DNA of 64,000 nt from an uncultured Candidatus Saccharibacteria bacterium. Lineage in GTDB: Bacteria > Patescibacteriota > WWE3 > UBA101185 > UBA10185. The DNA is taken from positions 17,843-81,842 of the forward strand of contig CAZILK010000001.1 of the NCBI GenBank assembly GCA_964540135.1, given 5' to 3'. Shown one piece after another: positions 256 to 43,220 of the stretch. Every line of letters begins with the position of its first letter. Positions within the stretch are counted from its first letter, which is position 1. The position numbers and the translations under genes were made by a program. Under the pieces are notes generated by a model. The model did not search any database. It was not told the origin of the DNA and saw only the letters and a list, made by a program, of their open reading frames with translations.

Positions 256-1869
256 ATGAAAAAGTTTAAATACGAGATTCTTGTTTTTATATTTGCAATT
301 TTGATTAAACTCCCAAATCTTGGGTACGATACGTTCAATACAGATGTTTGGAAATGGAAATCAAGATCATATAACTTCAGTAATGGTGTTTTTGGACTAG
401 ATTTTAAAGAGACACTTCAAATTTATCATCCCGGAGTTATTTTGATGTGGCACGGTACTTTTGCAATTAAAATCTTTAATCTTTATTACGATGTGGCTGT
501 TGGGGGAGAGCCGCTAAACGATGTTACTTCAATCTTCTACCTAAATTTTGTTCAAAAGCTTCTTGTATCTATTACTGTTGCATTTTGCCTAGCCATAAGC
601 TTTTATCTGCTCAAGAATCTCTTTGGAAAAAAGTTTGCAGCCTTTGGGGTCGCGATGCTTCTTTTTGAACCTCTATTTTTAGCACTGACTCGTGAATTTC
701 ATCTTGAAGGGTTGATGTCTGCCTTTATGCTAGTGGCACTCTTCGCAACTTACTATTATAAAACAACAAAGGGTAGAAAAGCGCTAGTTGTTTCAGCACT
801 CTTTACTGCTTTGGCAGTTTTAACTAAGGTAACTGCGGTACTGCTTTTGCCTTTTATTTTCGGAGCTATTTTATGGGCTTCTCGTACAAAGGATATGAAG
901 CTCAAAGTATTAGTTCAAAAAACTATTCGCCCATGCCTTTCTTGGTTTGGAGTTTTTTTGGTGTTTTGTTTTCTTATGTGGCCAGCACTTTGGGTTAGGC
1001 CTCTTGATGTATATAACAAAGTGGCTCGTGGTATTTTTTCAGTTGGGATTGAAGAAGGACATGATCAAATTTACTTTGGGAAATATGTTTCAGATCCCGG
1101 TGCAACTTTTTACCCTGTAGCGCTTTTAGTTAAATCGTCTGTCTTTTTGGTTCCTGGGCTTATTGGGTATTATCTTTGGGCAAGAAAAAAAGCTTCGCTT
1201 GAGGTGAGGCATTTTAATACCTTCTTGTTAGTTTTTTCAATTTACTATCTTCTTCCTCTTGTCTTTTCATCAAAGAAACTGGATAGGTATGTGCTGCCTT
1301 CACTTTTGTCACTTGTTCTAATATCAACAAGTTTTTATTACTACTTATTAAAGTACAAAGCTAATATCTTTTACAAACTAGTACTGCCTATATTTATAAT
1401 TTGGCTTGGTTTTTTAGCCTATATTCATCCTGACTATTTATCTTACTACTCACCATTTACCGGCGGGCTTCGAAACGGTATTACAATAATCGAACCTAAA
1501 TGGATGTACGGCGGACTTGCGGTTCAAGACTATTTCAAAGAAGTGTCGCAAGAGAGGGGATACACTCCTTTTACAAAAGCTCAGCCGTTCAATGAAATCA
1601 GAAGGAAGAAGGCATTGATGGCGGATAAGCTAACAGTTGCATTCCCGGAAAAATACTACAACCAAACCTATCCGTTTATTCTTCAAATAGGAGGCAAAGC
1701 TATTATTGATAAATTGACAGATGAAGCACAGCAAGCAAAGTTTTTTGTCTTTCCTGTATGGGAAGATAGACATGAGTATTTAGATAAGCATAAGCTTAGA
1801 TACTTTGACTCAATTTATGTCAGGGGCGTTAAATCATTTAATGTTTATGAACGGGTGGGTAACCCTTAG
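256..1869 (+). CDS. Polytopic membrane protein, putative GT-C-fold (PMT/ArnT-like) glycosyltransferase
   Basis: 537 aa with many predicted TM helices; N-terminal loop with DxF/D..W..R and YHPGVILMW resembles the first extracytoplasmic loop of PMT_2/ArnT-type enzymes; sits in a glycan locus. Confidence 0.45.
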   Translation: MKKFKYEILVFIFAILIKLPNLGYDTFNTDVWKWKSRSYNFSNGVFGLDFKETLQIYHPGVILMWHGTFAIKIFNLYYDVAVGGEPLNDVTSIFYLNFVQKLLVSITVAFCLAISFYLLKNLFGKKFAAFGVAMLLFEPLFLALTREFHLEGLMSAFMLVALFATYYYKTTKGRKALVVSALFTALAVLTKVTAVLLLPFIFGAILWASRTKDMKLKVLVQKTIRPCLSWFGVFLVFCFLMWPALWVRPLDVYNKVARGIFSVGIEEGHDQIYFGKYVSDPGATFYPVALLVKSSVFLVPGLIGYYLWARKKASLEVRHFNTFLLVFSIYYLLPLVFSSKKLDRYVLPSLLSLVLISTSFYYYLLKYKANIFYKLVLPIFIIWLGFLAYIHPDYLSYYSPFTGGLRNGITIIEPKWMYGGLAVQDYFKEVSQERGYTPFTKAQPFNEIRRKKALMADKLTVAFPEKYYNQTYPFILQIGGKAIIDKLTDEAQQAKFFVFPVWEDRHEYLDKHKLRYFDSIYVRGVKSFNVYERVGNP

Positions 1870-1877
1870 AATTTGGT

Positions 1878-3179
1878 ATGGTTAAAGCAGTGAGTCAGTT
1901 ATACAACAAATTAATACAGCTGATTGGTAAGAATACTTTTGATACTGTCTTTGTGACTGGGGCTTTGTTTGGAGTTGGTTTTTTCTCATACCTCCTGCAA
2001 CTTCTTCTCGGAAGATTTTTAACTGTTGAAGGCTTTGGTGATTTCACAGCTCTTCTTTCCCTAGTTACTATAATCTCGTTTTGTTCAAATGTCATTGGAA
2101 TGGCGCTTGTTAAGCTCTTTTCAGAGCTTTATGCAGATAAAAAGATATCGACTCTAACAAACCTCTTTCTTAAGGTTTTACTTGTTTCAGTTATTGCAGG
2201 TATAGTACTCGCACTTACAACAGTGGTTTTTCAAAAACCAATTCACGACTATTTAAATATCAGCTCAACAAATGTAATACTATTTTTTGCGCTTGATTTC
2301 GTACTTACTTTTGGCTTGATGTATGTTGCCACATTTTTGCAGGCTACAAGTAGATTCATATTCTTTTCACTTTATCTTGTAATCGGCAGTATTTTTAGGC
2401 TGTTATTTCCAGTTCTGTTTTTGATCTTTGTAAAAAATGATCCAAGCATGGTGTTTTTTGGCTTCTTTATAGCCCAGGCTCTATCGGTAGTAACCGGCTT
2501 TGTAGCAGTTAAATTAAGCAATGTAGCAAGCGAACCAAGTGAATCAACTTATGTTAAAGGAGATTCCAGAGCACATTTTAAAAAATTACTAACTGAAATA
2601 ATACCTATTGCAGTAATTACAGGTGTTATGGCTCTTCTTTCTAATTATGACATGATACTAGTGAAGCATTTTTTTGATGCCTATAACGCAGGTATTTACG
2701 CAGGTACTTTAACTCTTGGCAAAATAATTTTATTTGGTGCCGGTTCTGTTGCTACTGTTATGTATCCAAGAGTAGTTAGCAGTAAAAAAGATAAAACCCT
2801 ACTTACAAAATTAGTTAAGCAATTTACAGTTATTCAAGTAGTATTCATTTTGATACCTCTAGCTTTGTACGTCTTTTTTCCAAGAGCAATAACAACATTA
2901 TTTTTTGGCGATAAATATATATCTTCAGTCCCGTTTCTTCCGGTGTATGCATCATTTATTGGTTTTTGGGTACTTATAAATTATATGCTTACATTGTTTA
3001 TTGCACTTGATATAAAAAAAATCGCTTTTTTTGTACCACTTTTTTTCATCGCTCAGTATATAGGGATTACATTTTTCCACGCCAATTTACATCAAGTTGT
3101 TTGGGTAAACTTTAGTGTGGGACTTGCTTTTGCGTTATTTACTTCAGGTTATTTTGTTAAAACACTAAGAAAACTTTAA
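1878..3179 (+). CDS. Wzx-like oligosaccharide flippase / polysaccharide biosynthesis protein (MOP superfamily)
   Basis: 433 aa, about 12 TM helices; N-terminal pattern (GRFLTVEGFGDF...) typical of Wzx-family flippases; glycan locus context. Confidence 0.6.
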   Translation: MVKAVSQLYNKLIQLIGKNTFDTVFVTGALFGVGFFSYLLQLLLGRFLTVEGFGDFTALLSLVTIISFCSNVIGMALVKLFSELYADKKISTLTNLFLKVLLVSVIAGIVLALTTVVFQKPIHDYLNISSTNVILFFALDFVLTFGLMYVATFLQATSRFIFFSLYLVIGSIFRLLFPVLFLIFVKNDPSMVFFGFFIAQALSVVTGFVAVKLSNVASEPSESTYVKGDSRAHFKKLLTEIIPIAVITGVMALLSNYDMILVKHFFDAYNAGIYAGTLTLGKIILFGAGSVATVMYPRVVSSKKDKTLLTKLVKQFTVIQVVFILIPLALYVFFPRAITTLFFGDKYISSVPFLPVYASFIGFWVLINYMLTLFIALDIKKIAFFVPLFFIAQYIGITFFHANLHQVVWVNFSVGLAFALFTSGYFVKTLRKL

Positions 3180-4105
3180 GTATAATTTTGTTTAAACCAT
3201 TCGTAGGTTGAAGCAATGCCTTCTTTGATTCCTATTTTTGGTTTCCAGCCCATATTAAAAAGTTTTGTATTATCAAACAGTCTTTTTGGCGTCCCGTCTG
3301 GTTTTGATGGATCGGTTAAGATCTCACCTGTAAATCCAACAATCTCCGCAATCATTTGAGTGTACTCCATGATAGTGTAATCTTCCCCATATCCAACGTT
3401 GATTATCTCATCATCATTATAATTTTCCATTAAAAAGACAATGGCATCTGCCATGTCATCAACATGGAGGTATTCTCTTCTCGGAGTTCCTGTACCCCAG
3501 ATTGTTATTGTTTTAGATCCAGCAACTTTTGCTTCATGTAACCTTCTAATAAGTGCTGGCAAGAAATGAGATGAAGTTAGATCAAAGTTATCGTTTGGTC
3601 CATATAAGTTTGCAGGTTGAGCACTTATAAAGTTTGTTCCGTACTGTTTGTTATAGGACTTACACATAGTGATTCCTGCAAGCTTTGCCATTGCGTACGC
3701 CTCATTTGATGGTTCAAGAGCTCCTGTCATCAGGTATTCTTCTTTAACCGGAACTGGCGCAAATTTTGGATAAATACACACAGAGCCAAGAAACACTAGT
3801 TTTTTAACCCCAGTTTTATATGCATTATGAATAACATTGTTTTGTATTTTTAAATTCTCATAGATAAATTCAGCTGGGTGTTCTTTATTTGCAATAATGC
3901 CACCAACTTTAGCAGCTGCTAAAAACACATACTCTGGTTTATGAGTTTGAAAGAACTCTTCTGTTTGAGCCTCGTTTCCAAGATCAAGCTCAGCTCTTGT
4001 TTTAAGAAGTAGGTTTGTAAACCCCTTGTTTTGTAAATTTCTTGTAATTCCGGATCCCACAAGTCCTTTATGACCTGCAACAAATATTTTAGAATCTTTG
4101 TTCAT
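3176..4105 (-). CDS. fcl: GDP-L-fucose synthase (GDP-4-keto-6-deoxymannose 3,5-epimerase/4-reductase)
   Basis: N-terminus [19 protein letters not shown] is the classic Fcl/WcaG signature; short-chain dehydrogenase fold; probable start at internal Met ([11 protein letters not shown]); overlaps the gmd 3' end by 17 nt. Confidence 0.9.
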
Positions 4106-5135
4106 TTTTTTCCTCCATTTTAAAATCACTTTCACACATCATAGTGATCAACTCGTCAAAAGTTGTCTTTGGTGCCCAGTTTAATTTTTCTTTCGCCAAA
4201 GACGCATTTCCAAGTAAAAAGTCTACTTCTGCCGGTCTAAAGTACTCAGGATCGACTTTAATCATCTCAGTTCCAGTTTTTGTATCATATCCTACCTCAT
4301 CAAGTCCTTCTCCTCTCCATGCGAGTTCGTAGCCAAAATGTCTTGCAGCTTTTTCGGTAAATTCCCGGACTGAATGTGTTTCTCCGGTTGCAATTACAAA
4401 ATCCTCAGCATTTTCTTGTTGAAGCATAAGCCACATAGCTTCAACATAGTCACCTGCAAATCCCCAGTCTCTTTGTGAATCAAGATTGCCAAGGAAAAGC
4501 ATCTTTTCGTGTCCCAGCTTGATTCTTGCAAGCCCCCTTGAGATTTTTCTTGTCACAAAGGTTTTGCCTCGCCTTGGCGATTCATGATTAAAAAGAATGC
4601 CTGAACAAGCATAGATTCCGTAGCTTTCTCTGTAGTTAACAGTAATCCAATGAGCGTATAGTTTAGCAACTCCATAGGGGCTCCTTGGGTAGAAAGGTGT
4701 CTTTTCAGTTTGTGGGGTTTCTTGTACCTTACCAAACATTTCACTGCTTGAGGCTTGGTAAAACTTAATTTTAGGATTAACTCTGTTAATTGCCTCAAGA
4801 ATCCTAAGCGTGCCAAGACCAACGACATTTCCGGTGTACTCAGGGAGTTCAAAACTCACTTTAACATGGCTCTGAGCACCAAGGTTATAGATCTCTTCTG
4901 GTGAGACTTTCTCAATTAGGTTACTTAAAATACTGGAATCTGTAAGGTCTCCGTAGTGAAGGTGGAGCTGCGGGTGGTTGTGGTGAGGATCTTCATATAA
5001 ATGGTCCAGTCTTTGAGTATTGAAGTTGCTTGAGCGCCTAATAACGCCATGAACCTCATATCCCTTGTTTAGGAGTAGCTCTGTAAGGTAAGAGCCGTCT
5101 TGGCCAGTAATTCCGGTAATCAATGCTTTTTTCAT
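4089..5135 (-). CDS. gmd: GDP-mannose 4,6-dehydratase
   Basis: [47 protein letters not shown] is near-identical to canonical Gmd N-termini; directly upstream of fcl on the same strand. Confidence 0.93.
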
Positions 5136-5203
5136 AACTAAGTGATTTTAATACATTTTAAGAGGTCTTTAAAGAGTAGGTTATTTATTCATGTTTTTAA
5201 ACA

Positions 5204-5866
5204 GTGTATATTAAGACTGTGAAAGACAATTTACTACTATCCGGTAATTATTCGGGGTCATTTAATGTACCTGTCTTTAATAAGGTACCTTTTAATAAAA
5301 CTTGCCTTGATGTTGGGTGTTGGGACGGTAACCTTGGGGAAAAGCTCGTATCTCATAAGAAATGTGTTGTAGATGGTATTGATGTTAACGAGGAGATGCT
5401 AAATAAAGCAAAGACACGTGGATATCGGTCAGTTTACCCAATTAACTTAAATCTTGATACTTTGGATTTTTCTTCTATTAAAGAAAGTTACGATGTGATT
5501 ATCTTTGCTGATATTCTTGAACATCTGATCAATCCAGTAAATGTTCTAAGACTTCTAAGTGAGAAACTTAATAAAGACGGTATGATTATAATCTCGTTAC
5601 CTAATGTTGCCTTTTTACTTAATCGGTTAAATTTATTACTTGGTAAATGGCAATATAAAGAATTTGGGACTTTAGATAAAACACATCTTAAATTTTTTAC
5701 ACTTAAAACAGGAAGAGAAATGGTTGAGTCAGTTGGGCTTAAAGTTTTAGATGTTATTCCGTATAATCAATTCGGTATTTTAAAAAAGATACATCCACTA
5801 GAAGAGATTTTCCCAGAACTTCTAGCGTATCAGTTTATGGTCGTTGCAACAAAAGATGAAAAATAA
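5204..5866 (+). CDS. Class I SAM-dependent methyltransferase
   Basis: Motif I LDVGCWDGNLG plus acidic post-I residue; 220 aa; glycan locus. Confidence 0.7.
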   Translation: MYIKTVKDNLLLSGNYSGSFNVPVFNKVPFNKTCLDVGCWDGNLGEKLVSHKKCVVDGIDVNEEMLNKAKTRGYRSVYPINLNLDTLDFSSIKESYDVIIFADILEHLINPVNVLRLLSEKLNKDGMIIISLPNVAFLLNRLNLLLGKWQYKEFGTLDKTHLKFFTLKTGREMVESVGLKVLDVIPYNQFGILKKIHPLEEIFPELLAYQFMVVATKDEK

Positions 5867-6686
5867 AGTAGATGATGTTCTAGTTAGTATAATCTTGCCC
5901 GCATACAAACAAGAGAAAAATATTAAAGAGGATATCCAAAGAATAACTGGAGTTATGGACAGTACCAGATTTAATTACGAGCTAATCGTTATTGTCGATG
6001 GTTTTTTAGATAGAACTTTTGAAATTGCTAAAACACTTGAGTCAGACAAAATCCATGTTGAGGGTTACAAAACAAACTACGGTAAAGGCTATGCTGTAAG
6101 ATACGGTATGGCAAGAGCTAAAGGAGATTTCATAGCATTTATTGATGGCGGTATGGAAATTGATCCAAACGGAATTTCTATGATTCTTGAGCACATGCTG
6201 TGGTATAAGGCTGACATAATGGTAGGGAGTAAGAGACACCCAGCAAGTATTGTTAAATACCCATTCTTCCGAAGATTTTATAGTTTCGGGTACTCGACTC
6301 TTTGTAGACTGCTTTTTAGACTTAAAATCTCAGATACTCAAGCAGGGCTTAAAGTTTATAGAAAAGAAGTACTTGATAAGGTTTTACCTAGACTTGTTGT
6401 TAAAGCTTATGCTTTTGATGTTGAGCTATTAGCTGTTGCTAAATACCTTGGGTTTAAAAGAATCTTTGAGGCGCCAATTGCTGTTTCGCTTGATTTCACT
6501 TCAAGCGGGAAATTATCTTCAGTTTTTAACAAACAAATTAAAGATATTCTATATGACACAATTGCTATCTTTTATCGCATGTATATTCTTGGTTATTATA
6601 AAGACTCAAGTCAACGCAAGTGGATTTACAGCGAGGAACTTAAGATGAATGTTAATACCGGAGAGTTTAACAAACATGGCAAATGA
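5844..6686 (+). CDS. Glycosyltransferase family 2 (dolichyl/polyprenyl-phosphate sugar transferase-like)
   Basis: VSIILPAYKQE N-terminal GT2 motif, IVIVDGFLDRT, DxD-like FIDGG. Confidence 0.7.
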   Translation: MQQKMKNKVDDVLVSIILPAYKQEKNIKEDIQRITGVMDSTRFNYELIVIVDGFLDRTFEIAKTLESDKIHVEGYKTNYGKGYAVRYGMARAKGDFIAFIDGGMEIDPNGISMILEHMLWYKADIMVGSKRHPASIVKYPFFRRFYSFGYSTLCRLLFRLKISDTQAGLKVYRKEVLDKVLPRLVVKAYAFDVELLAVAKYLGFKRIFEAPIAVSLDFTSSGKLSSVFNKQIKDILYDTIAIFYRMYILGYYKDSSQRKWIYSEELKMNVNTGEFNKHGK

Positions 6687-7497
6687 TCCTTTAGTTTCTG
6701 TATTAATACCAGTATACAATGCAGAGAAGTATTTTAATGAAGCACTTCAGAGTATTGTAGATCAAACATATAAAAATATTGAAATAGTCATAATTGATGA
6801 TTGTTCTCAAGATAGTACTGGTGCCATCGCTAAAGCTTTTTCAACTAAAGACTCAAGAGTAAAAGTATTTACAAACGAACAAAATTTGAAACTAAGTGGT
6901 GCTCTTAATGAGGGAATAAGCCATTGTTTCGGGAAATATATTGTTCGGATGGACGGGGACGACGTTTCTTTTTTAGACCGGATTGAAAAGCAAGTAGCAT
7001 ATATGGAACAAAACCCGGAAGTTGGTATTAGCGGCGGTTCGATGGAGATAGGCGATGAGTATTTAGCTAAAATTGGAACTCGAAAATATTATTTAACAGA
7101 CAGTGCTATTAGAAAGAATATCTTTAAATTTAGCCCTTTTTGCCATCCAGGTGTAATTATTAGAAAAGAAGTTTTTGATATAGTAGGTGGGTATGACGGG
7201 AGTTTCACACCGGCTGAGGACTATGAGTTGTATTTTAGAATTGGACTCAAATTTAAGTTTGGCAATATTTCAGATTTTGTTTTGCATTATAGGACACTTC
7301 CAAACAGTATGACCACAAGTTCCATTTCTAAGATGGAGAAAAAAACTATAGAAGTTAGAAAGAAATACATGAAGGTCTACAATGCCGGCTTGTCTGATTA
7401 CTTGTACACCTACGCACATGAAACATTAGGCAGGCTAATACCTCCAACACTTAAGCTGCGATTGTTTATTTTTATTAGAAGCCTGTTTGCAAAGTAA
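6676..7497 (+). CDS. Glycosyltransferase family 2
   Basis: VSVLIPVYNAEKYFNEALQSIVDQTY...IEIVIIDDCSQDST canonical GT2-A signature; start taken at the internal Met after the upstream overlap. Confidence 0.8.
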   Translation: MANDPLVSVLIPVYNAEKYFNEALQSIVDQTYKNIEIVIIDDCSQDSTGAIAKAFSTKDSRVKVFTNEQNLKLSGALNEGISHCFGKYIVRMDGDDVSFLDRIEKQVAYMEQNPEVGISGGSMEIGDEYLAKIGTRKYYLTDSAIRKNIFKFSPFCHPGVIIRKEVFDIVGGYDGSFTPAEDYELYFRIGLKFKFGNISDFVLHYRTLPNSMTTSSISKMEKKTIEVRKKYMKVYNAGLSDYLYTYAHETLGRLIPPTLKLRLFIFIRSLFAK

Positions 7498-7498
7498 T

Positions 7499-8428
7499 AT
7501 GATTAGGTTAATTTTAAAAGGCGGTCTTGGCAATCAAATGTTTCAGTACGCGGCAGCATACTCTCTTGCTAAGAAGCACAATACAACTTTACTTCTTGAT
7601 ACAACTTTTCTAGACACAAATTGGCCTATAAAAGAGTTTGTTAAAAGAGACCTTGAGCTTGATTTATTTAACATCGATTATCAAACTACCGGTTTCTCCG
7701 GCTCAAGATTTATAAATAACTACTTAGGCTATCTTCTTTACTCACTTATTACCTATTTCGGGAGCAAACCCAAATGTGTGACTCAGAATCAAGCATTTAA
7801 CGCACTCGACAAACTACTCAACCAACAAAAATCTTGCAGTGAGCCATCTAAAGAAGATTTTGATAATTTCCCGCAAGACATGCTCCTTGAATGCTATATG
7901 AATGATTACCGATTATTTGAGGTTTTTAGAAGTGAGATATGTGAGATGTACGATACCGACAAGCTAATTGACGACACTTTTAGTGGTACAGAGGAGGCAA
8001 TACGAGCTACAACTTCGGTTGCTGTAAACATAAGAAGAGGGGACTTTCTATTTAAAAAGAACAAGCTTGTGATGAAAATCCTAGATGACAACTACTTTAC
8101 ACAAGCTATAAAGATAATTAAATCAAAAGTTCCAAATCCACATTTCTTTATATTTAACTACGATTATCCTGAAGGTATGACAAGTCCTTACGGTCTATCA
8201 GCTAAAGAATACTCGCTTCTTGGTAGAGAATTTGTTGGTGATCGCTTTAAAACCTATCTACGATTAGCCTCTATTTGCAATCACAATATTTTGTCAAACA
8301 GTACTTTTTCATTCTGGGGTGCGTATTTGAACAAACACATAGATAAAGTAGTAGTTGCTCCAACCTTTTGGGATACATCAGGAAAAGAGTTCTCACTCCC
8401 TAAAGATTGGTTAAAAGTTACTAATTAA
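7499..8428 (+). CDS. Alpha-1,2-fucosyltransferase (glycosyltransferase family 11)
   Basis: GGLGNQMFQYAAAYSLAKK, NIRRGDF and SNSTFSFWGAYL match the three conserved GT11 motifs (H. pylori FutC: GGLGNQMFQYAFAKSL / HIRRGDY / ANSTYSWWAAYL). Confidence 0.85.
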   Translation: MIRLILKGGLGNQMFQYAAAYSLAKKHNTTLLLDTTFLDTNWPIKEFVKRDLELDLFNIDYQTTGFSGSRFINNYLGYLLYSLITYFGSKPKCVTQNQAFNALDKLLNQQKSCSEPSKEDFDNFPQDMLLECYMNDYRLFEVFRSEICEMYDTDKLIDDTFSGTEEAIRATTSVAVNIRRGDFLFKKNKLVMKILDDNYFTQAIKIIKSKVPNPHFFIFNYDYPEGMTSPYGLSAKEYSLLGREFVGDRFKTYLRLASICNHNILSNSTFSFWGAYLNKHIDKVVVAPTFWDTSGKEFSLPKDWLKVTN

Positions 8429-9483: not shown

Positions 9484-9543
9484 TAGGGTATTTGAGTTCT
9501 TTCGCCAAAATTAAGATGATAGATAGACTTTTTTTGTAAGCTT

Positions 9544-10872: not shown

Positions 10873-10887
10873 ATTACGTGTCTGGTT

Positions 10888-11844: not shown

Positions 11845-11935
11845 ATACTAATTGTTCGAGTCTATTATAATATCTTTCTGCTATATTGTAAGATGCGCGT
11901 TTGTTGTTGGGTTTACAAGTTAGTTAAGAGTTAGT

Positions 11936-14152: not shown

Positions 14153-14153
14153 G

Positions 14154-18872: not shown

Positions 18873-18957
18873 ATTATTTGTATAATGCAACGCAACAGCC
18901 TTAAATGCAACAGTATTTACATATTAAGGTACGATCTACTTATGGTATTATTCCTGT

Positions 18958-19545: not shown

Positions 19546-19546
19546 A

Positions 19547-34326: not shown

Positions 34327-34339
34327 GTATAATTGCTGC

Positions 34340-35449: not shown

Positions 35450-36588
35450 AAGTGTTAATGCTTGGGAGAACTGATATAAAAAGTAATCCTGGAGGCGATC
35501 TTATTCAGATTGAACAAACTGCACTCGAACTTCGAAAGCTTGGTGTTCAGGTTGATTTAAAAACCACTTGGCATGTTGATATGTCTAAATACGACCTTGT
35601 TCATATTTTTCAACTTGACTGGGTATCAGAGTGTTTTATCTACGCAAGAGAAGCAAAAAAAGCAGGTAAAAAGGTTGTTTTGTCCCCAATACATCACAGT
35701 ATTAAAGAAGTGGAGCTGTGGGAAAAACAGTTCGCGTTTGGTATGCGAAAACTAGCCAGTACCTTCCTGCCTACCCAATTTTTACGGGATACAGCAAAGA
35801 TAGTTTACAGAGCACTATTTTTTGATCACGCAAAGCTCCTTCCTGCTTTTTATGCAGGAATTTATGGACTTAAAAGTCTTCATCAAAAGACTCTTGAGTT
35901 ATCAGATCTTGTTCTTGTACAAACACAGGCTGAGGTAGTTGATCTGAAGTCTACCTACGGTGTTGATTTTAACTGGCATGTTGTACCAAACGGAGTAGGG
36001 TCAAACTATATAGAAACTGCCGGTCAATTAACTGAGAATACGGTCCCGCCTCTAGCTTTCACTGACTATATTCTGTGTGTAGGAAGAATTGAGGCGAGGA
36101 AGAATCAATTAAGTGTAATAAAAGCTGTTGAGAAATTGAGGAACGAAACAAATAAAGATCTAAAGCTTGTATTTGTTGGAAGACTTAGTAGAACACAGAA
36201 AAGTTATGTAAATCACTTTTTAACTGAGGTTAAGAGTTATGACTGGATAGCTCATCTTGAGTGGATTGACTACTCTAAAATGCCAAGTGTTTATAAGTTT
36301 GCAGCAGTTTCTGTATCTGCTAGTTGGTTTGAAACAACAGGCCTTACTAGCCTTGAGGCTTTGTACTGTGGTTGTAATGCTGTTGCAAGTGGAGCGAGGG
36401 CTTTTGAGGTGCTGGGTGATCTTGTTGAGTACTGTGATCCTTCAGATATTGATAGCATTAAGGACGCTATCAATAAACAATTAACTAAACCAAAACCTAT
36501 ACTCAGTAACGAGTTTAAACGCAAATACACTTGGCAAAAGAGTGCCGAAAAAACATTAAAATTATATAATGAGGTTCTTAATGACTAA
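35446..36588 (+). CDS. Glycosyltransferase family 4
   Basis: GT-B organisation; ETTGLTSLEALYCGCNAVAS motif; 4-nt overlap with the upstream GT4. Confidence 0.8.
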   Translation: MKVLMLGRTDIKSNPGGDLIQIEQTALELRKLGVQVDLKTTWHVDMSKYDLVHIFQLDWVSECFIYAREAKKAGKKVVLSPIHHSIKEVELWEKQFAFGMRKLASTFLPTQFLRDTAKIVYRALFFDHAKLLPAFYAGIYGLKSLHQKTLELSDLVLVQTQAEVVDLKSTYGVDFNWHVVPNGVGSNYIETAGQLTENTVPPLAFTDYILCVGRIEARKNQLSVIKAVEKLRNETNKDLKLVFVGRLSRTQKSYVNHFLTEVKSYDWIAHLEWIDYSKMPSVYKFAAVSVSASWFETTGLTSLEALYCGCNAVASGARAFEVLGDLVEYCDPSDIDSIKDAINKQLTKPKPILSNEFKRKYTWQKSAEKTLKLYNEVLND

Positions 36589-39496
36589 TTTTGAACCCAT
36601 TGTGGGGCTTGTAATATTTGTGGTTGGGTTGTACGCAGTTATTCGTGACTGGCGCTTCTTCATTTATATTCTGCTTTTTTTTAGTGTATTTCTGCATAAA
36701 GAATTGTTTAGTTTATACAAATGGGATTTGATGCCGATTAGATTTTTAATGGCAGCGGTATCGGTTTTTGTATCATTTACGGCTATTCGTAAACTTCTTT
36801 GGTTGTTTAAGAGAAGAAAGTTGTTGACTGGGGATGTACTTGCCCAGAAAGCGGCAGTCCTTGAGCTGCTTCACGACCCGTTTATAGTTTTCCTCTCACT
36901 TCTATGGCTAGTTAGGTTGATATCTCTTCTTTTCTCGGCAGATACTACTTCAAGCATCACGCTGTTTGCTTTCTTCACAACAATTTACTTTGGTGGTTTG
37001 TTCGTATACGTTAAGCTTAAAAAATCTACTACAGATAGCCTTAGGTTTATTAATTTCTATATTTTTATCGGGCTTTTGCTTTGTTTATTTGGCTTTGTTC
37101 AGTTGTTTGTCCATTATAGTTACGGACTAACAATTGGCTCTTTGTGGGCAATTCCAAAACACTTACCAAGAGTCGGGAGTATCTTTTGGGATGTGAATCA
37201 TTTTGGCGGATTTATAGCGTCTCTTTTACCACTATGTGCTGTTCAGGCTTTGACCTCTCACACTTTGAAAGCCAAAGCCTATAACTTGTTTTGCATCTTG
37301 TCGTTCACAGTAATTCTTTTCTTAACTAACTCAAGAACATCGTGGATGTTGATGGCTATCTCAGTTGTAGTTTTCTTGTTTTTACTTGTTTATAAAAAGT
37401 TAAAAGTCAAAGGTATTTTACTTGGGCTTGTTATAGCTCTTTTTGTAGCTGGTTTCTTTGTCTATTCCTACTCAATAAAAGATTCTGAATTTAGACTTGT
37501 AGTTAAGAATTATTTTCACTACAGGTTAGACTCATTTGATTCACATTTTCTACTTCTCAGGGGAGCCTCACAAGTTTTTGAAAAGCACCCTATTTTTGGA
37601 GGTGGTTATGGCAGTTTTTTTGAACAGTTCAAAAAAACTGAAGTTTCCTCCCTTTACTTAAGCCGGGATCCTGCAGGATTAATTACAAAAGTACCGGCTC
37701 ACACTATTTGGGGTGAGGTGGCTGCAGAAACTGGTATCCTAGGTCTTGGGGTTTTCATACTGCTATTTATCTTGTTGGTATCGGTTCCGCTCTATAACTT
37801 TTTAGTAAGCTCGTACCACAAAGATTATCTTATTCATGGTGCGATCGTTGCTTCAATTGTTGGTTGGTTCACAGCAGGTATTTTTTATTCTTATAACTCA
37901 GAATTCTTTTGGTTTGTGTTAATTTTATATCTTGCGTATTCAGCCAGTACTTACTTTAAGCTAGAAAATAAGCCGCTAGATTTACAAGCATTTAAACGGA
38001 TGATCAGTTATATTGAGCAGAAGTTTAATGCTGGGTTTATATTTCTGGCTCTCATTTCATTTACTTTGATTTTTATCAATCTTGGGAAACATACATTTAT
38101 AACTTGGGATGAAGCAATTTATGCAAAAATCGCAAAGAATATGGTTGAATCAGGGGATTATCTTAGGCTTAGATGGCTTATGGATAAAACTTGGTTTGAA
38201 AAGCCCCCTCTTTATTTTTGGACAACCGCATTGTTTATGAAAATCTTTGGCATAACTGAGCTTGCAGCAAGACTAACATCAGCTATTGCTGGATTTGGGA
38301 CTGTTCTTGTAACTACTTATTTTGCAAAAAGGGCATTTGGGAAAAGTGTCGCGTATCTTTCAGGTCTGATCTTACTAACAACTTTTCAATTTTTATATTA
38401 CTCCAGAGCAGCCATGCTTGATGTTACAGTTACATTTTTTATGGTCTGTGCATTAACTATTTATTTCCTGCGAGCAAGAAATACTACAACCTTGTTATTA
38501 TCAGGAGTTTTTGTTGGGTTGGCAGCTATGACCAAAGGTGTCGTTGGCTTTTTACCACTACTAATAATTTTTATGTTTGAAGTTTCACATGCTTACTTTG
38601 ACGAGATAGGTTTTAAAAAAGCTTTAAAAAACAGCGTAATTAACTCAAGTATTATCTTTCTCTTCTCACTGATCATCTTTCTCCCGTGGCACCTTTATAT
38701 GTTTTCTATATATGGACCAAGATTTATTGATAACTATTTTATTTACCATGTTCTTCAAAGAGCAACTGAATCAATTGAAGACAAAGGTAGGCCATTCTTT
38801 TGGTACTTAATCGTGTTAAAAGTTAGTATGCGGATTTGGTTTATACTCCTAATCCCAACATTTATATTTAGTTCACTTCTTGTGTGTGTAAGAAGGATTC
38901 CCGAAAGACTTGGGCTTTTTCTGTCAAAACAAGAAAAGCTTGGGATTGTCTATTTGTTGATTTGGGCTTCTGTAACATTCTTGTTTTTCTCATTACCTGT
39001 ATCAAAGCTAATTTGGTACATAATCCCGATTTATCCGGTTCTTGCAATCATTTGTGCGGTGGGCTTTATCTTCTCAGTTAAAAGTATATATAAAATACTG
39101 CCTGTAGGAGTGTTTAAAGATATTACATACATAAGTGCATTTGCACTTGTATTAATCGGTCTGACTTATTTTTATATCGAAAGAAAGAAAGTTTATACCG
39201 ATAATTTAACTTTCCCTCAAGTATCTGTTATTTTAAAGAGCAATGGGCGTTTTCCAAATGATACTGTGAGAATAGATAAAGTAGATTATCCTTTGATGTA
39301 TTATTATCGAAAAGGTCCGTACACACCTACCAGATTTAAGGAGATAAAAGCGCAAATGGCTCTTTTACCTCCTGGTTCAAGGCTAGTCTTCATAACAAGT
39401 GAAAGAAGGTATCAAGAGCTTTCAGCTCTTTACCCATTAATTGAGCTTTACTGGCGAGAAGATGATTTCGTTTTAGCTTCAATTACCAACCTATGA
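36569..39496 (+). CDS. Fusion protein: N-terminal O-antigen ligase/polymerase (Wzy_C) domain plus C-terminal ArnT/PMT_2-type GT-C glycosyltransferase domain
   Basis: Residues ~230-420 carry Wzy_C hallmarks (LTNSRTSWMLMA; R...PIFGGGYGSF; VPAHTIWGEVAAETGILGLGVFIL). Residues ~480-975 carry the ArnT/PMT_2 signature (TWDEAIYAKIAKNMVESGDYLRLRW...FEKPPLYFWTTALFMKIFG...RLTSAIAG). One uninterrupted 975-codon ORF. Confidence 0.8.
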   Translation: MRFLMTNFEPIVGLVIFVVGLYAVIRDWRFFIYILLFFSVFLHKELFSLYKWDLMPIRFLMAAVSVFVSFTAIRKLLWLFKRRKLLTGDVLAQKAAVLELLHDPFIVFLSLLWLVRLISLLFSADTTSSITLFAFFTTIYFGGLFVYVKLKKSTTDSLRFINFYIFIGLLLCLFGFVQLFVHYSYGLTIGSLWAIPKHLPRVGSIFWDVNHFGGFIASLLPLCAVQALTSHTLKAKAYNLFCILSFTVILFLTNSRTSWMLMAISVVVFLFLLVYKKLKVKGILLGLVIALFVAGFFVYSYSIKDSEFRLVVKNYFHYRLDSFDSHFLLLRGASQVFEKHPIFGGGYGSFFEQFKKTEVSSLYLSRDPAGLITKVPAHTIWGEVAAETGILGLGVFILLFILLVSVPLYNFLVSSYHKDYLIHGAIVASIVGWFTAGIFYSYNSEFFWFVLILYLAYSASTYFKLENKPLDLQAFKRMISYIEQKFNAGFIFLALISFTLIFINLGKHTFITWDEAIYAKIAKNMVESGDYLRLRWLMDKTWFEKPPLYFWTTALFMKIFGITELAARLTSAIAGFGTVLVTTYFAKRAFGKSVAYLSGLILLTTFQFLYYSRAAMLDVTVTFFMVCALTIYFLRARNTTTLLLSGVFVGLAAMTKGVVGFLPLLIIFMFEVSHAYFDEIGFKKALKNSVINSSIIFLFSLIIFLPWHLYMFSIYGPRFIDNYFIYHVLQRATESIEDKGRPFFWYLIVLKVSMRIWFILLIPTFIFSSLLVCVRRIPERLGLFLSKQEKLGIVYLLIWASVTFLFFSLPVSKLIWYIIPIYPVLAIICAVGFIFSVKSIYKILPVGVFKDITYISAFALVLIGLTYFYIERKKVYTDNLTFPQVSVILKSNGRFPNDTVRIDKVDYPLMYYYRKGPYTPTRFKEIKAQMALLPPGSRLVFITSERRYQELSALYPLIELYWREDDFVLASITNL

Positions 39497-40617
39497 AGCT
39501 TGCAATTGTTCATGATGATTTTATTCAACACGGTGGGGCTGAGAACTTAGTTTTAGCTTTATGTGAGATCTGGCCAGACGCTGTTTTATACTCAAGCTAC
39601 GCTACAAAAGAATGGGAGGCAGAATTAAAGCTTAGCAATATCAAGCTTGTTACCTCTTTCATGCAGCACCTGCCTTTTAAGAAAAAGCTCAATAAATTCT
39701 ATGCTGGGCTTTTTCTTTTCCCACTTGCCTTTGAGAGCTTTAAGTTTGATGAATTTGATGTTGTTTTAAGTGTTTCAGCTAGGTTTTCACACTGCATCGT
39801 AACAAAACCACAAACCAAACATATTGCTTATATCAACTCCCCAGGAAGAATGTTCTGGGAAGCTTTAGACTATTTTGAAGATACTAAATTTGCAAAATCT
39901 AGATTTCTTAATAAAGTTGCTAGTAGGTATTTGAAAACTATCTCAGCGTACTATAGAGTTTGGGATTTTACTGCCGCACAAAGGGTAGATGCAATTATTG
40001 CTAATTCAAAAACTCCAAAAGCTAGAATTTTAACTTACTATAAAAGAGAGTCTGAAATAATTTACCCTTTTGTTGATGTTACTTATTTTGAAAACACTAA
40101 AAAAACTAAAGGTAATTTTTATCTCGTAATTTCCAGACTCGCTTCATGGAAAAGAATTGATACAGCGGTCAGAGCTTGTATTAAAACAGGAGACAACTTA
40201 GTTGTTGTTGGGGATGGGGAGATGCTAGCCGAATTAAAGAGATTATCTGCTGGGCATAAGAACATTCAGATTTTGGGCAGAGTGCCTGAAAGCAGAAAAT
40301 TAGAACTACTGTGTTCATGTAAAGCACTAATCAACACACAGTATGAGGATTTTGGGATAGTTCCTCTTGAGGCAATGGCCTGCGGGAAACCTGTTCTTGC
40401 GTACGGCCGCGGCGGTGTACTTGAGACAGTTCTACCGGGAAAAACCGGAGACTTTTATTATGAACAAACACCAGAAGCTTTAATTTTAGCTTTAAGCTCG
40501 TTTCACCCAGAGAAGTATTTAATGACAGATTGTATCTTTCAAGCAAGAAGGTTCAGTAAAGAGCTTTTTAAAAATGCCATAGCTAATTTCGTAAATAGTG
40601 TATACTTAGGGAACTAG
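39493..40617 (+). CDS. Glycosyltransferase family 4
   Basis: MKLAIVHDDFIQHGGAENLVLAL N-terminus; FGIVPLEAMACGKPVLAYGRGG E-x7-E motif. Confidence 0.8.
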   Translation: MKLAIVHDDFIQHGGAENLVLALCEIWPDAVLYSSYATKEWEAELKLSNIKLVTSFMQHLPFKKKLNKFYAGLFLFPLAFESFKFDEFDVVLSVSARFSHCIVTKPQTKHIAYINSPGRMFWEALDYFEDTKFAKSRFLNKVASRYLKTISAYYRVWDFTAAQRVDAIIANSKTPKARILTYYKRESEIIYPFVDVTYFENTKKTKGNFYLVISRLASWKRIDTAVRACIKTGDNLVVVGDGEMLAELKRLSAGHKNIQILGRVPESRKLELLCSCKALINTQYEDFGIVPLEAMACGKPVLAYGRGGVLETVLPGKTGDFYYEQTPEALILALSSFHPEKYLMTDCIFQARRFSKELFKNAIANFVNSVYLGN

Positions 40618-40624
40618 CTATCTT

Positions 40625-41266
40625 ATGAATTCATACGACATTTTAAAAAGACTGCTTGATATCTTTGGCGCACTTGTTGGCATTATTTGTCTTTCCCCAA
40701 TTCTCCTTTTCATGTCTATATTCATAAAACTAACCTCACCAAATGGAGCTATCTTCGCAGACATCCCACTTAGAATATGTAAAGGTGGGCGAGAATTTAA
40801 GATGTATAAATTTAGGTCTATGATACCTAACGCTCATCAATGGCTTCTTGATCATCCGGATTGGCACGAGAAGTATAAGGCCAATAATTATAAGATTTCA
40901 CCTGAAGAAGATCCAAGATACATTGCTGGAGCTAAATTTATGCGCAAGTATAGTATTGATGAGTTGCCTCAATTTTTTAATGTGCTGATAGGAGATATGA
41001 GTTTAGTTGGGCCACGGGCCTACTATCCGTTTGAGCTAAAAGAGCAACGTGCTAAGTTTCCAGAAACTGGAGTTTATATTGACGAGGTTCTTAAGATAAA
41101 GCCTGGGATAACAGGTGTATGGCAAATAGGCGGTAGGTCAAAGATCGGTTTTGTTGAAAGAATTAAAATGGATGCAGAGTATGCAAAGAGGCGTTCAATA
41201 TTGTATGATTTACTGGTGTTAATTAAAACACCAGTTGCAGTTTTGGCTGCGAAAGGAGCAAGTTAA
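40625..41266 (+). CDS. Undecaprenyl-phosphate sugar phosphotransferase (small monotopic PglC/WbaP-C-type sugar transferase)
   Basis: KRLLDIFGALVGIICLSPILLFMSIFIKL re-entrant helix, YKFRSM, DELPQFFNVLIGDMSLVGPRA are the conserved bacterial sugar-transferase family motifs. Confidence 0.9.
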   Translation: MNSYDILKRLLDIFGALVGIICLSPILLFMSIFIKLTSPNGAIFADIPLRICKGGREFKMYKFRSMIPNAHQWLLDHPDWHEKYKANNYKISPEEDPRYIAGAKFMRKYSIDELPQFFNVLIGDMSLVGPRAYYPFELKEQRAKFPETGVYIDEVLKIKPGITGVWQIGGRSKIGFVERIKMDAEYAKRRSILYDLLVLIKTPVAVLAAKGAS

Positions 41267-41267
41267 A

Positions 41268-43220
41268 ATGGATCGACCTAATGTATGGAAACCCTCATCA
41301 GTAAAGGGTAATAGTAATGTAAAAAAATTTGGTAAGCGGCTTGGTATTGGGGGCGGAATTATTCTTGGAGTATTCGCGCTCTTGTTTCTGGTTGTGTACT
41401 TGGTTCTTTTGCGCCCTGTTCTTGCCCTAAAAGCAGATGCAGACAGGATACAGTCGCACGTTAAAGCAAGCCAAGAGGCTTTAGCTGCAAGGGATCTCGT
41501 TACTTTTGAGAAGAACTTGGATCTCTTGGAGTCTGACTTAACACAGCTTCGAGCAACAAGAGATGAGAAGCTAAAATGGACTGCAAATTTTCCAAAGCTC
41601 AAAACCTACTATACCGATTCTGAATATTTTATAGATGCAGGACTTCACGCCATTAAAGCTGGTAAAGAATTCACAATTGTTGTTGAGCCTTTTGCAGATG
41701 CTCTTGGGTTGAAGATTGCTAATAACAAACCTCTTGAAAGCTCTGAATCAAACCCAAATGCAGCAGCAGAAGAGCAAGGTCTTGCCGAAGCCTTTTCAGC
41801 ATGGGTAGGTGCTATGCCTCTTGTTGCTGAGAAGTCAGATCCGATATTAAATGAATTAAATATGATGGGGGAAGAACTATCCAAAGTTGATGCTAGTAAA
41901 TACCCAGAAGATTTCAGAGGCTTTCCGCTTAGAGAGACAATAATTGGAGCACAAAACACATTAACACAGGTAAACGATTACGCGCCTGACATTAAAAAAG
42001 CTTTAGTTGTAATCCCTGAACTACTTGGTGTTGGTGGAGTTGAGAAAAGATATATGATTATCATGCAAAATGATAAAGAAATGCGCGCAACGGGTGGTTT
42101 TTGGACCTATCTCGCTACTTTTAAAGTAAATAATGCGCTTCTTAACTCAGATTTTACCTCCTACAACTCATACTATGTTGATGATGTCTTAAACACAATT
42201 GATGCATATCACACATTTCCAAAAGTCCCGCCGACATATGAAACACATCTAAAGGTTGAGAGAATGTTTGCAAGAGATGCGAACGTTTCGCCTGACCTAC
42301 CAACTTCAATAGATCAATTTCTAGAATTCTGGAACTTAGCAAAACCACTAGCTCCAGGACAATTCAAAGATATTGACGGCTTTGTCGTTATCAACACTCG
42401 AGTTTTAGAAGAACTCCTTGAGATAACAGGTCCTGCCACAGTTAATGGGTTTACTTATACAAAAGACAATGTTGTTCTTGAACTTGAAAAGCTTGCAAGC
42501 CTTGCACTTGCCGAGCAGGTTAATAGAAAGAAAGTTCTTGGAGACCTGATGGAAAGAATGCTTGTTAATGTCTTTGAATCTGATAAGAACTTGTGGCCAA
42601 AACTTGTTGATAAAGGGTTTAATCTTATGGCCAGAAAGCATGTTGCTGCTTATGTTGTTGATCCAGAAGCACAGGCGCTTCTTGAAAAACATAATTTTGC
42701 AGGCAGAATTGTAGATCCGGTAGAAGGGGATTATGTTTTTGTAAATGACACAAACCTTGGTGGAGATAAAACTAACTGGTTTACGACAAAAGAAGTTAAC
42801 CACAAACTTGAGCAGGTTAACGGTAAGTGGAAAAGAACAGTTACTGTAAACTTTACCTATAAACAACCATCAGCAGAATTTGCACCATTTGTAAAAAGAT
42901 ATAGATCTTGGATAAGAATCTATACCCCACTTGGTTCTGAACTTATAAAAATGACAGGGTCTGATGATGCTGCAGGTACTGGAGAAGAGCGCAATAAAAC
43001 CTACTTCCATGGTTTTGTAACTCTTGGGCCAGATGAAACCAAAACACTTACACTTGAGTATTATGTTCCGGATAGCGTTGTTAAAGACGGTGTCTATAAG
43101 TTGTATATTCAAAAACAACTCTCAATTGATACTGAAAAACACAGTGTTACGGTTGATGGGGAAACCAAAGAGCTACTACTTGATAAACTTGACAAAAAGT
43201 ACTCAAAAAAGCTTAAGTAA
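41268..43220 (+). CDS. Membrane-anchored extracytoplasmic protein (~650 aa), possibly DUF4012-like
   Basis: Start taken at Met after the upstream stop; single N-terminal TM (IGGGIILGVFALLFLVVYLVLL) then a large hydrophilic domain; family assignment from memory of genomic context only. Confidence 0.5.
   Translation: MDRPNVWKPSSVKGNSNVKKFGKRLGIGGGIILGVFALLFLVVYLVLLRPVLALKADADRIQSHVKASQEALAARDLVTFEKNLDLLESDLTQLRATRDEKLKWTANFPKLKTYYTDSEYFIDAGLHAIKAGKEFTIVVEPFADALGLKIANNKPLESSESNPNAAAEEQGLAEAFSAWVGAMPLVAEKSDPILNELNMMGEELSKVDASKYPEDFRGFPLRETIIGAQNTLTQVNDYAPDIKKALVVIPELLGVGGVEKRYMIIMQNDKEMRATGGFWTYLATFKVNNALLNSDFTSYNSYYVDDVLNTIDAYHTFPKVPPTYETHLKVERMFARDANVSPDLPTSIDQFLEFWNLAKPLAPGQFKDIDGFVVINTRVLEELLEITGPATVNGFTYTKDNVVLELEKLASLALAEQVNRKKVLGDLMERMLVNVFESDKNLWPKLVDKGFNLMARKHVAAYVVDPEAQALLEKHNFAGRIVDPVEGDYVFVNDTNLGGDKTNWFTTKEVNHKLEQVNGKWKRTVTVNFTYKQPSAEFAPFVKRYRSWIRIYTPLGSELIKMTGSDDAAGTGEERNKTYFHGFVTLGPDETKTLTLEYYVPDSVVKDGVYKLYIQKQLSIDTEKHSVTVDGETKELLLDKLDKKYSKKLK

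Follow-up and report, generated by a model that had tools for sequence, protein, structure and literature searches.

We analyzed a window of 64,000 nucleotides, meaning the whole stretch of DNA examined, from an uncultured Candidatus Saccharibacteria bacterium (GenBank assembly GCA_964540135.1, contig CAZILK010000001.1, positions 17,843 to 81,842 of the forward strand), where a sequence-only reading had described a surface-glycan assembly island at positions 256-43220. Open reading frame (ORF) listing and profile searches resolve this interval into 35 tightly packed genes, g1 to g35. Gene content was assessed with the Pfam and NCBIfam profile libraries, a sequence search of the PDB and hydropathy counts of transmembrane (TM) helices. 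Direct matches to glycan-enzyme families are found for 19 genes: Gmd, Fcl, a GT11 fucosyltransferase, four GT2, five GT4 and one CgeB-like glycosyltransferase (GT), a PglC-type phosphoglycosyl transferase (PGT), a GtrB/ArnC-type synthase, a fusion of Wzy_C and ArnT domains, and enzymes of the GT-C class. Seven further genes encode modifiers, namely six class-I S-adenosylmethionine (SAM) methyltransferases (g5, g13, g15, g17, g18 and g25) and AsnB. The claimed glycan content of the interval is thus borne out, as are the calls of gmd, fcl, GT11, AsnB, six methyltransferases, an initiating transferase and a GtrB/ArnC-type synthase. The "about 12" transferases of the GT2, GT4 and CgeB-like types are right in kind and come to ten in number, with the GT11 enzyme extra. 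Seven or more large polytopic membrane proteins had been expected; the hydropathy scan counts nine large (g1, g2, g12, g20, g21, g22, g24, g26 and g32) and one small (g23). Comparisons below refer to related genome loci (L002-L008 and L010, also L009) and to contigs from a metagenome scan with g32 (L013, L016, L018-L020 and L023). The features, with Pfam gathering thresholds (GA) or family cutoffs where relevant, are as follows.

2-250, plus strand: C-terminal 83 codons of a truncated ORF that runs off the left window edge
256-1869, plus strand: g1, ArnT/PMT_2-type GT-C by homology, 537 aa, at least 7 TM helices (PMT_2 36.1 bits, GA 26.1)
1878-3179, plus strand: g2, divergent MOP/Wzx-family flippase judged by its homologs, 433 aa, 9 or more TM helices
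3176-4135, minus strand: g3, GDP-L-fucose synthase Fcl (NCBIfam GDPFucSynFcl 467 bits, E 3e-140, just under the cutoff of 500)
4089-5135, minus strand: g4, GDP-mannose 4,6-dehydratase Gmd (Pfam GDP_Man_Dehyd 510 bits; TIGR01472 569 bits, cutoff 415)
5204-5866, plus strand: g5, class-I SAM methyltransferase, conserved in relatives (Methyltransf_23/31/12)
5844-6686, plus strand: g6, GT2 (Glycos_transf_2 74 bits; ortholog in the closest relative 70% identical)
6649-7497, plus strand: g7, GT2 (Glycos_transf_2 137 bits; ortholog in the closest relative 51% identical)
7487-8428, plus strand: g8, GT11-type fucosyltransferase (Glyco_transf_11 68.6 bits, GA 23.9, residues 171-297; ortholog 47% identical)
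8434-9483, plus strand: g9, CgeB-like Glyco_trans_1_2 transferase (PF13524 91 bits)
9544-10872, minus strand: g10, FAD oxidoreductase of PRK07233 type (426 bits, cutoff 252)
10888-11844, minus strand: g11, GtrB/ArnC-type polyprenyl-phosphate-sugar synthase (full-length match in the PDB search)
11936-14152, minus strand: g12, orphan 14-TM protein, 738 aa, adjoining the GtrB-type gene
14154-15092, minus strand: g13, methyltransferase (family match)
15084-16205, plus strand: g14, GT4 (family match)
16198-17025, minus strand: g15, methyltransferase (family match)
17022-18890, minus strand: g16, AsnB amidotransferase (TIGR01536 505 bits, cutoff 267)
18958-20365, plus strand: g17 and g18, class-I SAM methyltransferases (Methyltransf_11/23), upstream of the GT-C trio in L002-L008
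20368-21408, plus strand: g19, GT2 with a C-terminal TM helix (Glycos_transf_2 67 bits, residues 4-130), overlapping g20 by 4 nt
21405-23624, plus strand: g20, AftD-like GT-C enzyme by predicted fold, 739 aa
23614-25698, plus strand: g21, paralog of g20 (31% identity over 685 aa)
25691-27322, plus strand: g22, probable and more distant third member of the g20 family, judged by hhalign
27344-27754, plus strand: g23, small protein of 136 aa with 4-5 TM helices
27735-29726, plus strand: g24, fast-evolving membrane protein with beta-sandwich ecto-domains in an AlphaFold2 model
29801-30523, plus strand: g25, class-I SAM methyltransferase (Methyltransf_11/31), absent from the closest relative
30668-32140, plus strand: g26, ArnT/PMT_2-like protein, 490 aa, 10 TM helices (PMT_2 24.8 bits, just under the GA of 26.1)
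32070-33078, minus strand: g27 and g28, small soluble proteins of unknown function (no Pfam or PHROGs match)
33121-36588, plus strand: g29 (TuaH-like, TuaH 79 bits), g30 and g31, GT4 by Pfam
36569-39496, plus strand: g32, fusion protein, 975 aa, 19 TM helices (Wzy_C 60.5 bits, GA 31.7; PMT 62.6 bits; PMT_2 64.6 bits)
39493-40617, plus strand: g33, GT4 (Glycos_transf_1 86.8 bits)
40625-41266, plus strand: g34, small monotopic PGT of PglC type (Bac_transf 177 bits; EPS_sugtrans 217 bits, C-terminal catalytic domain)
41235-43220, plus strand: g35, DUF4012 protein with an N-terminal TM helix (PF13196 62 bits)

By gene content and synteny the cluster is laid out in modules: A (g1-g9), a variable slot (g10-g16), B (g17-g25, with an AftD-like GT-C trio) and C (g26 and g29-g35, beside recO). 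The strand changes eight times along the interval, and genes overlap by 4, 8, 11 or 20 nt; independent gene calls on the identical public contig agree with these overlaps, so this part of the earlier description is real. The overlaps make the translationally coupled sub-operons proposed on its basis plausible; scans for promoters and terminators returned fewer matches than shuffled sequences did and are uninformative. The right border at 43220 is correct, with RecO beginning at 43224 and followed by the housekeeping genes for DinB, glycyl-tRNA synthetase (GlyRS), Rel, MraZ, MraW and FtsI. The left border at 256 is merely the window edge. The cluster probably continues leftward, because the closest relative has at least 10 kb of extra glycan genes upstream of g1, including a second flippase, two more PMT-type proteins, an LPG_synthase_TM protein and a GT2. 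The ORF at 2-250 is cut by the edge, and therefore the left cluster border lies outside the window; this ORF resembles none of the genes that precede g1 in the closest relative.

Enzymes of the GT-C class have a polytopic core of 7-13 TM helices and a small extracytoplasmic domain after TM1 (PMC11127046). Three consecutive genes of module B, g20 to g22, encode proteins without a Pfam match even at E<=10 and without a meaningful NCBIfam match, and by these searches they belong to no named sequence family; a profile of the g20 family likewise found no match among PDB sequences. We found 53 homologs of g20 in 5.8 billion protein clusters, all of them annotated as hypothetical and lacking Pfam domains, and the few with a source label come from WWE3 or Patescibacteria metagenome-assembled genomes (MAGs). 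Both g20 and g21 have about 10 TM helices by hydropathy. An alignment of 48 family members shows an HDE motif immediately behind TM1, in which D52 is invariant and the conservation of E53 is 90% or more. This would be the conserved acidic residue expected of a GT-C enzyme in its first extracytoplasmic loop, with a putative catalytic role. The AlphaFold2 model of g20 is confident (pLDDT 90, pTM 0.92), and in a Foldseek search of the PDB only GT-C enzymes match it at E<0.02, namely AftD, DPY19, AftA and ArnT, with AftD 6W98 at the top (E 4e-8, TMq 0.51, 635 columns). As modeled, g20 has the GT-C fold, and g21 is a GT-C protein by paralogy; the two represent a candidate new GT-C family. Both are putative sugar transferases using a polyprenyl-phosphate donor, for which the GtrB-type g11 is available in the locus. 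The comparison of g22 with the g20 family (hhalign probability 50-57%, E 1-2e-4) covers 408-467 colinear columns and a common P.FR..R motif, and g22 follows g21 in five relatives; g22 is a probable GT-C of the same family. It seems to be without the TM1 of g20 and g21, and it carries an invariant D12 in an N-terminal YNDMA stretch that the positive-inside rule places outside the membrane.

In each of the eight related loci the GT2 gene g19 is found shortly before the g20 homolog, usually with a gene of about 240 aa in between. We considered g19 as a conserved GtrB-like donor synthase for the trio and found no support for this role: it yields only generic matches of the GT2 N-domain in NCBIfam and the PDB. 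The small protein g23 has positional counterparts of 129-139 aa in L003, L005 and L010 and is, by position only, a candidate lipid-sugar flippase or subunit; as a GtrA-family flippase it found no support, with no match to GtrA or any other family in Pfam, NCBIfam or PHROGs. The membrane protein g24 has 27 matches among 1.84e9 representative proteins and shares 25% identity with the ortholog at the corresponding position in the closest relative, against 41-78% for its neighbors. Its AlphaFold2 model (pLDDT 71) is confident in the C-terminal beta-sandwich domains and poor in the TM bundle, and Foldseek returned nothing significant, only weak jelly rolls resembling carbohydrate-binding modules. 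With no hhalign signal, a mediocre model and no significant fold match, g24 is not supported as a GT-C. Its pattern recalls specificity-determining or surface-exposed components.

A second GT-C lineage is formed by the ArnT/PMT-type proteins. The fusion g32 combines an N-terminal Wzy_C domain, of the O-antigen polymerase, ligase or O-oligosaccharyltransferase (O-OTase) type, with a C-terminal ArnT/PMT-type GT-C. The C-terminal half matches ArnT 5EZM (E 3e-27) with the DE..YA..M..SGD motif of loop 1 aligned, and the family of g1 matches this half with an hhalign probability of 98% (E 4e-14); the two are ArnT/PMT-type GT-C proteins by homology. The ortholog of g1 in the closest relative is 61% identical. 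For the N-terminal half of g32, the polymerase, ligase and O-OTase roles are not separable by sequence. The fusion is found at full length in seven metagenome contigs at 36-43% identity, and four more carry copies truncated by contig ends; an exact look-up of g32 as delimited here gave no record, probably owing to a start codon other than that of the deposited gene call. The protein g26 is a probable ArnT/PMT_2-like GT-C. Two of 11 members of its family match PMT_2, g26 itself matches the NCBIfam LA_3751/3752 putative GT profile at 59 bits, its hhalign probability against g1 and the C-half of g32 is 60-66%, and a QSED motif after TM1 is invariant in the family, while the family profile found nothing in the PDB. 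The elaboration by GT-C enzymes on the outer face that the sequence-only reading had proposed therefore stands for g20 (predicted fold), g21 (paralogy), g1 and the C-half of g32 (ArnT/PMT homology), and is probable for g22 and g26. It does not extend to all the polytopic proteins: neither g12 nor g24 showed any sign of a GT-C, and g2 is placed among the flippases through its homologs.

The variable slot (g10-g16, 9544-18890) is a 9.3-kb block with content specific to this genome; one sulfotransferase occupies its position in the closest relative, and three other genes do so in L003. Residues 8-314 of g11 align to Synechocystis GtrB 5EKP (E 7e-86) and to ArnC (E 1e-45), and TM helices at 236-254 and 276-294 follow the GT2 domain. 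By these matches g11 is a member of the GtrB/ArnC polyprenyl-phosphate glycosyltransferase family. The PgfS (270 bits) and ArnC (178 bits) profiles both score under their equivalog cutoffs, too low to assign a sugar specificity. The oxidoreductase gene g10 lies directly beside g11, and its product could oxidize a lipid-linked sugar or act on polyprenol. On the other side, g12 has no homolog other than itself in a word-indexed search of 5.8 billion protein clusters, no counterpart in 22 related loci, nothing in the PDB by phmmer and nothing by hhalign against all local GT-C profiles. An acidic SDEG motif is present in its predicted outward-facing loop after TM4, and g12 may be an orphan GT-C partner.

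Among the soluble enzymes, g8 carries the motif NIRRGDF, which we compared with the GT11 consensus, HxRRGDY: the RRGD core is retained, with Asn in place of His. On this motif and a profile match over the C-terminal half only, g8 qualifies as a putative GT11 alpha-1,2-fucosyltransferase, the linkage being predicted. The CgeB-like g9 is the best-conserved soluble enzyme of the cassette, scoring 442-476 bits in five loci. The small proteins g27 and g28 (193 and 144 aa), the first of which shares 71 nt with the 3' end of g26, are absent from every relative examined, where g26 adjoins g29.

The Wzx flippase of the sequence-only reading is recovered only indirectly. With E values up to 10 allowed, the sequence of g2 still matches nothing in Pfam, and its score for the NCBIfam WZX_like profile is a faint 19.5 bits against a cutoff of 300; nine or more TM helices were counted, where about 12 would be expected of a MOP flippase. 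Its 157 homologs, graded from 72 to 24% identity, mostly carry PF01943 or PF13440 and are named oligosaccharide flippases, so that g2 is assigned to the MOP flippases by transitive homology only. At the other end of the cluster, g35 is the conserved last gene, with orthologs of 647-728 bits directly before recO in L013, L016 and L018. Genes for a likely final step and for precursor supply lie outside the interval, with a two-component regulator pair between the last two.

53173-54201, minus strand: LytR-CpsA-Psr (LCP) glycopolymer-to-peptidoglycan ligase (PF03816 106.6 bits; TIGR00350 97.6 bits, cutoff 62.3)
54158-55174, plus strand: GalU-like UDP-glucose pyrophosphorylase by profile
57301-58707, plus strand: PGM/PMM by profile

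We compared the gene order with that of related contigs, more than 20 of which have a common gene backbone anchored next to recO-glyS-mraZ. With all window proteins mapped, the backbone is colinear across eight genome loci: flippase, GT2, GT2, in some loci gmd and fcl, GT, CgeB-like, three methyltransferases, GT2, the gene of about 240 aa where present, g20, g21, g22, small TM protein, large membrane protein, g26, g29 and g30. The closest relative, represented by ENA contigs, has orthologs 41-78% identical (g24 apart) in the order g1, g2, fcl, gmd, g5-g9, g18-g22, small TM protein, g24, g26, g29-g31, with DUF268 and CmcI-type methyltransferases replacing g17 and g25. The order g26-g29-g30-g31-g32 is kept in at least eight metagenome contigs, and in L013, L016 and L018 synteny continues through one extra gene to g33-g34-g35-recO-glyS-mraZ-mraW-ftsI. 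The extra gene encodes about 404 aa on the minus strand (L013:4320-5531, L016:3011-4222, L018:7678-8901) and has no counterpart in the window, whose g32 and g33 genes overlap by 4 nt. Modules A and B, where both are present (L002-L008 and L010), are adjacent and colinear. B and C occur together only in L004, L005, L007 and L010, and in L019, L020 and L023 g6-g7 is joined directly to g26, without module B and its GT-C trio. Homologs with a source name are labeled candidate division WWE3, Patescibacteria, Parcubacteria or Daviesbacteria, with a few Anaerolineae and Actinobacteria among distant g2 matches, and the related genome loci are labeled WWE3, Patescibacteria, Levybacteria or Saccharibacteria. 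One further locus, L009 (CAWGHS010000021.1, a 459-kb contig), has a g20-family gene with g18-, g5- and g19-like neighbors in a MAG labeled "uncultured beta proteobacterium"; its GC content is 0.46, against 0.28-0.36 in all other loci. It is either mislabeled or a genuine occurrence of the g20 family outside the Candidate Phyla Radiation (CPR).

We interpret the interval as a vertically inherited, modular envelope-glycan supercluster of a CPR (WWE3/Patescibacteria-like) bacterium, which would assemble its glycan at both membrane faces with polyprenyl phosphate as the carrier, and we give this reading a probability of roughly 70%. The PGT g34 would prime the carrier at the cytoplasmic face, and the GT4 enzymes g29-g31, g33 and g14, the GT2 enzymes g6, g7 and g19, the CgeB-like g9 and the GT11 enzyme g8 would extend the glycan, with GDP-fucose supplied by Gmd and Fcl and sugars modified by the six methyltransferases and AsnB. 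The lipid-linked unit would then be flipped by g2 and polymerized or ligated by the Wzy_C half of g32. On the outer face, g1, g20, g21 and the C-half of g32, with g22 and g26 as probable partners, would add sugars from polyprenyl-phosphate donors that could come from g11. The LCP ligase encoded 10 kb downstream would probably link the finished polymer to peptidoglycan, and lineage-specific swapping in the slot (methyl, sulfate, amide, an extra lipid-sugar branch) would diversify the surface glycan. The lipid-linked, fucosylated and methylated glycan of the earlier reading is in keeping with the PGT, the transitively assigned flippase, Wzy_C, the GtrB-type synthase, the GDP-fucose supply, GT11 and the six methyltransferases; methylation of sugars and a single glycan are parts of that claim that we only infer.

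Several observations weigh against this interpretation. The enzyme families come from profiles and homology, but the step order, the sugars beyond fucose, the acceptor and the choice between one and several products are all inferred. Seven of the 35 genes have no glycan assignment: the FAD oxidoreductase g10, g12, g23, g24, g27, g28 and the DUF4012 protein g35. No mannose-1-phosphate guanylyltransferase (ManC) that would feed Gmd is encoded in the window, and the nucleotidyltransferase near the cluster is GalU-like. None of the methyltransferases matches a sugar-specific family; all are of the generic class-I kind, and their action on sugars is conjectural. Relatives without g11 appear to have no visible donor synthase for the GT-C trio, because g19 is not demonstrably a lipid-phosphate-sugar synthase. 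Pfam scans of the window found no Wzz chain-length regulator (polysaccharide co-polymerase, PCP) domain in any gene, and no GtrA-family flippase was detected. The WWE3/Patescibacteria-like placement derives from the labels of homologs and not from a marker-gene phylogeny.

The strongest competitor of the single pathway, which we regard as possible yet clearly less probable, is that several independent glycoconjugate pathways are co-located and no single hyper-complex glycan is made. For example, module C could be responsible for a wall polysaccharide of Wzy type and module B for another polymer or lipoglycan, assembled externally by GT-C enzymes, and the PMT_2-type proteins could serve protein O-glycosylation. 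The separate occurrence of the modules agrees with this, the junction of g6-g7 to g26-g32 without B in three contigs in particular, as do the second Polysacc_synt flippase and extra PMT genes upstream in the closest relative, the eight strand switches and the existence of ArnT-like and AftD-like GT-C lineages side by side. However, the window contains one initiating PGT and one Wzy_C domain, short overlaps connect genes of different functional classes, and the adjacency and colinearity of A and B indicate that the A-B-C order is not a chance juxtaposition.

A main product linked to protein (pilins, S-layer or other surface proteins) is an unlikely explanation. PglL/PilO O-OTases carry the Wzy_C Pfam domain, and PMT-family GT-C enzymes O-mannosylate proteins. 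The Wzy_C half of g32 could thus be an O-OTase of PglL/PilO type, and the PMT_2 proteins could be protein O-glycosyltransferases. Glycosylation of pilins in the CPR is predicted and unstudied (PMC11623550), and glycoproteins or a glycosylated S-layer have been suggested for WWE3 (Kantor et al. 2013, PMC3812714). Against a protein acceptor stand the nearby LCP wall ligase, the TuaH-like g29 of teichuronic-acid type, the polysaccharide-building enzyme that is the closest structural match of g20, and the absence of any pilin or S-layer gene from the window.

The notion of a horizontally acquired accessory genomic island is highly improbable, and for the backbone largely refuted by the comparative data: the genome-specific slot g10-g16 and pair g27-g28, the lack of detectable relatives of g12 and the slightly lower GC (0.334-0.348) between 19 and 31 kb would suit it, but GC is 0.33-0.39 throughout and essentially as in the flanks, a tRNA search found none, no integrase or transposase is among the Pfam matches of the interval genes, flanking repeats of the one block tested (around 9300-19100) are at chance level only, and the backbone order and recO/dcw junction are conserved in many related contigs. 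The word "island" in its accessory or mobile sense is accordingly abandoned. Because the backbone is conserved beside recO, in agreement with the lack of tRNA, mobility genes, compositional shift and meaningful repeats, the cluster is on comparative grounds a vertically inherited, modular chromosomal one with a variable slot.

The supercluster resembles several known systems without coinciding with any of them. Multi-component transmembrane glycosylation systems (GtrA/GtrB/Gtr* of Shigella and Salmonella; CsbB-GtcA-YfhO and GacI/J/K/L of Gram-positives; PMC8035078, PMC11127046) likewise pair a GtrB-family enzyme with a polytopic GT-C; here the GtrB-family member is g11, and the GT-C proteins would act outside on a glycan made by a Wzx/Wzy-type route. 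They have one GT-C gene, whereas the present cluster has four demonstrated and two probable ones, some from an unannotated family, and no recognizable GtrA/GtcA-family flippase; the AftD-like trio lies apart from the GtrB gene, and GtrB is missing from the cluster in relatives. Wzx/Wzy-type loci for O-antigen, capsule or teichuronic acid share the PGT g34, Leloir GTs including the TuaH-like g29, a MOP flippase (g2, by transitive homology), the Wzy_C half of g32 and the nearby LCP protein, and fucosylated O-antigen loci share gmd, fcl and GT11. Such loci typically comprise about 10-20 genes. The 35 genes found here bear out the claim of a locus much larger than a typical O-antigen locus, and the cluster differs further in its six methyltransferases, in the missing Wzz/PCP, in the fusion of Wzy_C to an ArnT-type GT-C and in a flippase divergent enough to fail Pfam. 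The ArnC/ArnT system for lipid A aminoarabinose is matched by g11 (ArnC) and by the C-half of g32 (ArnT, with the DE motif aligned). The window contains no ArnA, ArnB, ArnD or lipid A pathway, and its ArnT-like domains are fused to Wzy_C or stand alone; the WWE3 lineage has been reported to be without lipopolysaccharide genes (PMC3812714).

The closest structural parallel is with the GT-C enzymes of mycobacterial arabinogalactan and lipoarabinomannan (AftD 6W98, AftA 8IF8, Emb). In AftD as in g20, extracytoplasmic domains rich in beta structure come after a TM core, and in both cases one pathway includes several GT-C paralogs. The identity of g20 to these is just 10-12%, with no Pfam or PDB sequence match; g20 has 739 aa against about 1,300-1,400 aa in AftD, its ecto-domain is followed by a terminal TM helix, and no DPPR synthase or DprE1/E2 genes for decaprenyl-phosphate-arabinose accompany it. 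A bolder proposal, which we consider doubtful, takes g20-g21-g22 as a new CAZy-level family of AftD-like GT-C enzymes found nearly only in CPR MAGs. With g23 and g24, the trio might form an unrecognized extracytoplasmic glycan-polymerizing machine that builds, and does not just decorate, a wall polymer or lipoglycan as in mycobacterial arabinan. If true, this machine would define the surface that ultrasmall episymbiotic bacteria show to hosts and phages.

Some neighboring features of the window are recorded apart from the cluster. The genes recO, glyS and mraZ are consecutive in L013, L016 and L018, which have no counterpart of two genes of the window: dinB (44263-45480, minus strand), between recO and glyS, and a gene for a short RelA/SpoT protein of 467 aa (48244-49647, plus strand), between glyS and mraZ. 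The 1.4 kb at 45481-46849 contain just one ORF, of 102 aa, and an Rfam scan of the whole window, this region included, found zero matches. The right window end encodes a LexA/CI-like repressor (63275-63931, minus strand) and a protein matching the phage family phrog_12933, of unknown function (62294-62989, minus strand).

An unusual abundance of glycosyltransferases in WWE3 was already remarked by Kantor et al. 2013 (PMC3812714), and a 2024 study of Saccharibacteria calls glycosylation "unexplored" (PMC11623550). We searched the literature for earlier descriptions of GT-C enzymes or glycan clusters in the CPR, and none of the papers found describes this cluster or its families. The general scheme, in which a glycan is made on a lipid, flipped across the membrane and extended on the outside by GT-C enzymes, is already established, and therefore the cluster would extend it to a new lineage with new families and does not represent a new principle. 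Genomes of the CPR are roughly 1 Mb in size, and for such a genome it is a large investment to devote at least 43 kb to a single conserved cluster of glycan genes. CPR/Patescibacteria combine tiny genomes with a life spent attached to other organisms' cells, and the chemistry of their surface is therefore central to recognizing hosts and to defense against phages. The unannotated AftD-like GT-C family with its invariant Asp, the conserved Wzy_C-ArnT fusion and the variable slot provide testable targets, and the slot could explain strain-level diversity of the surface.

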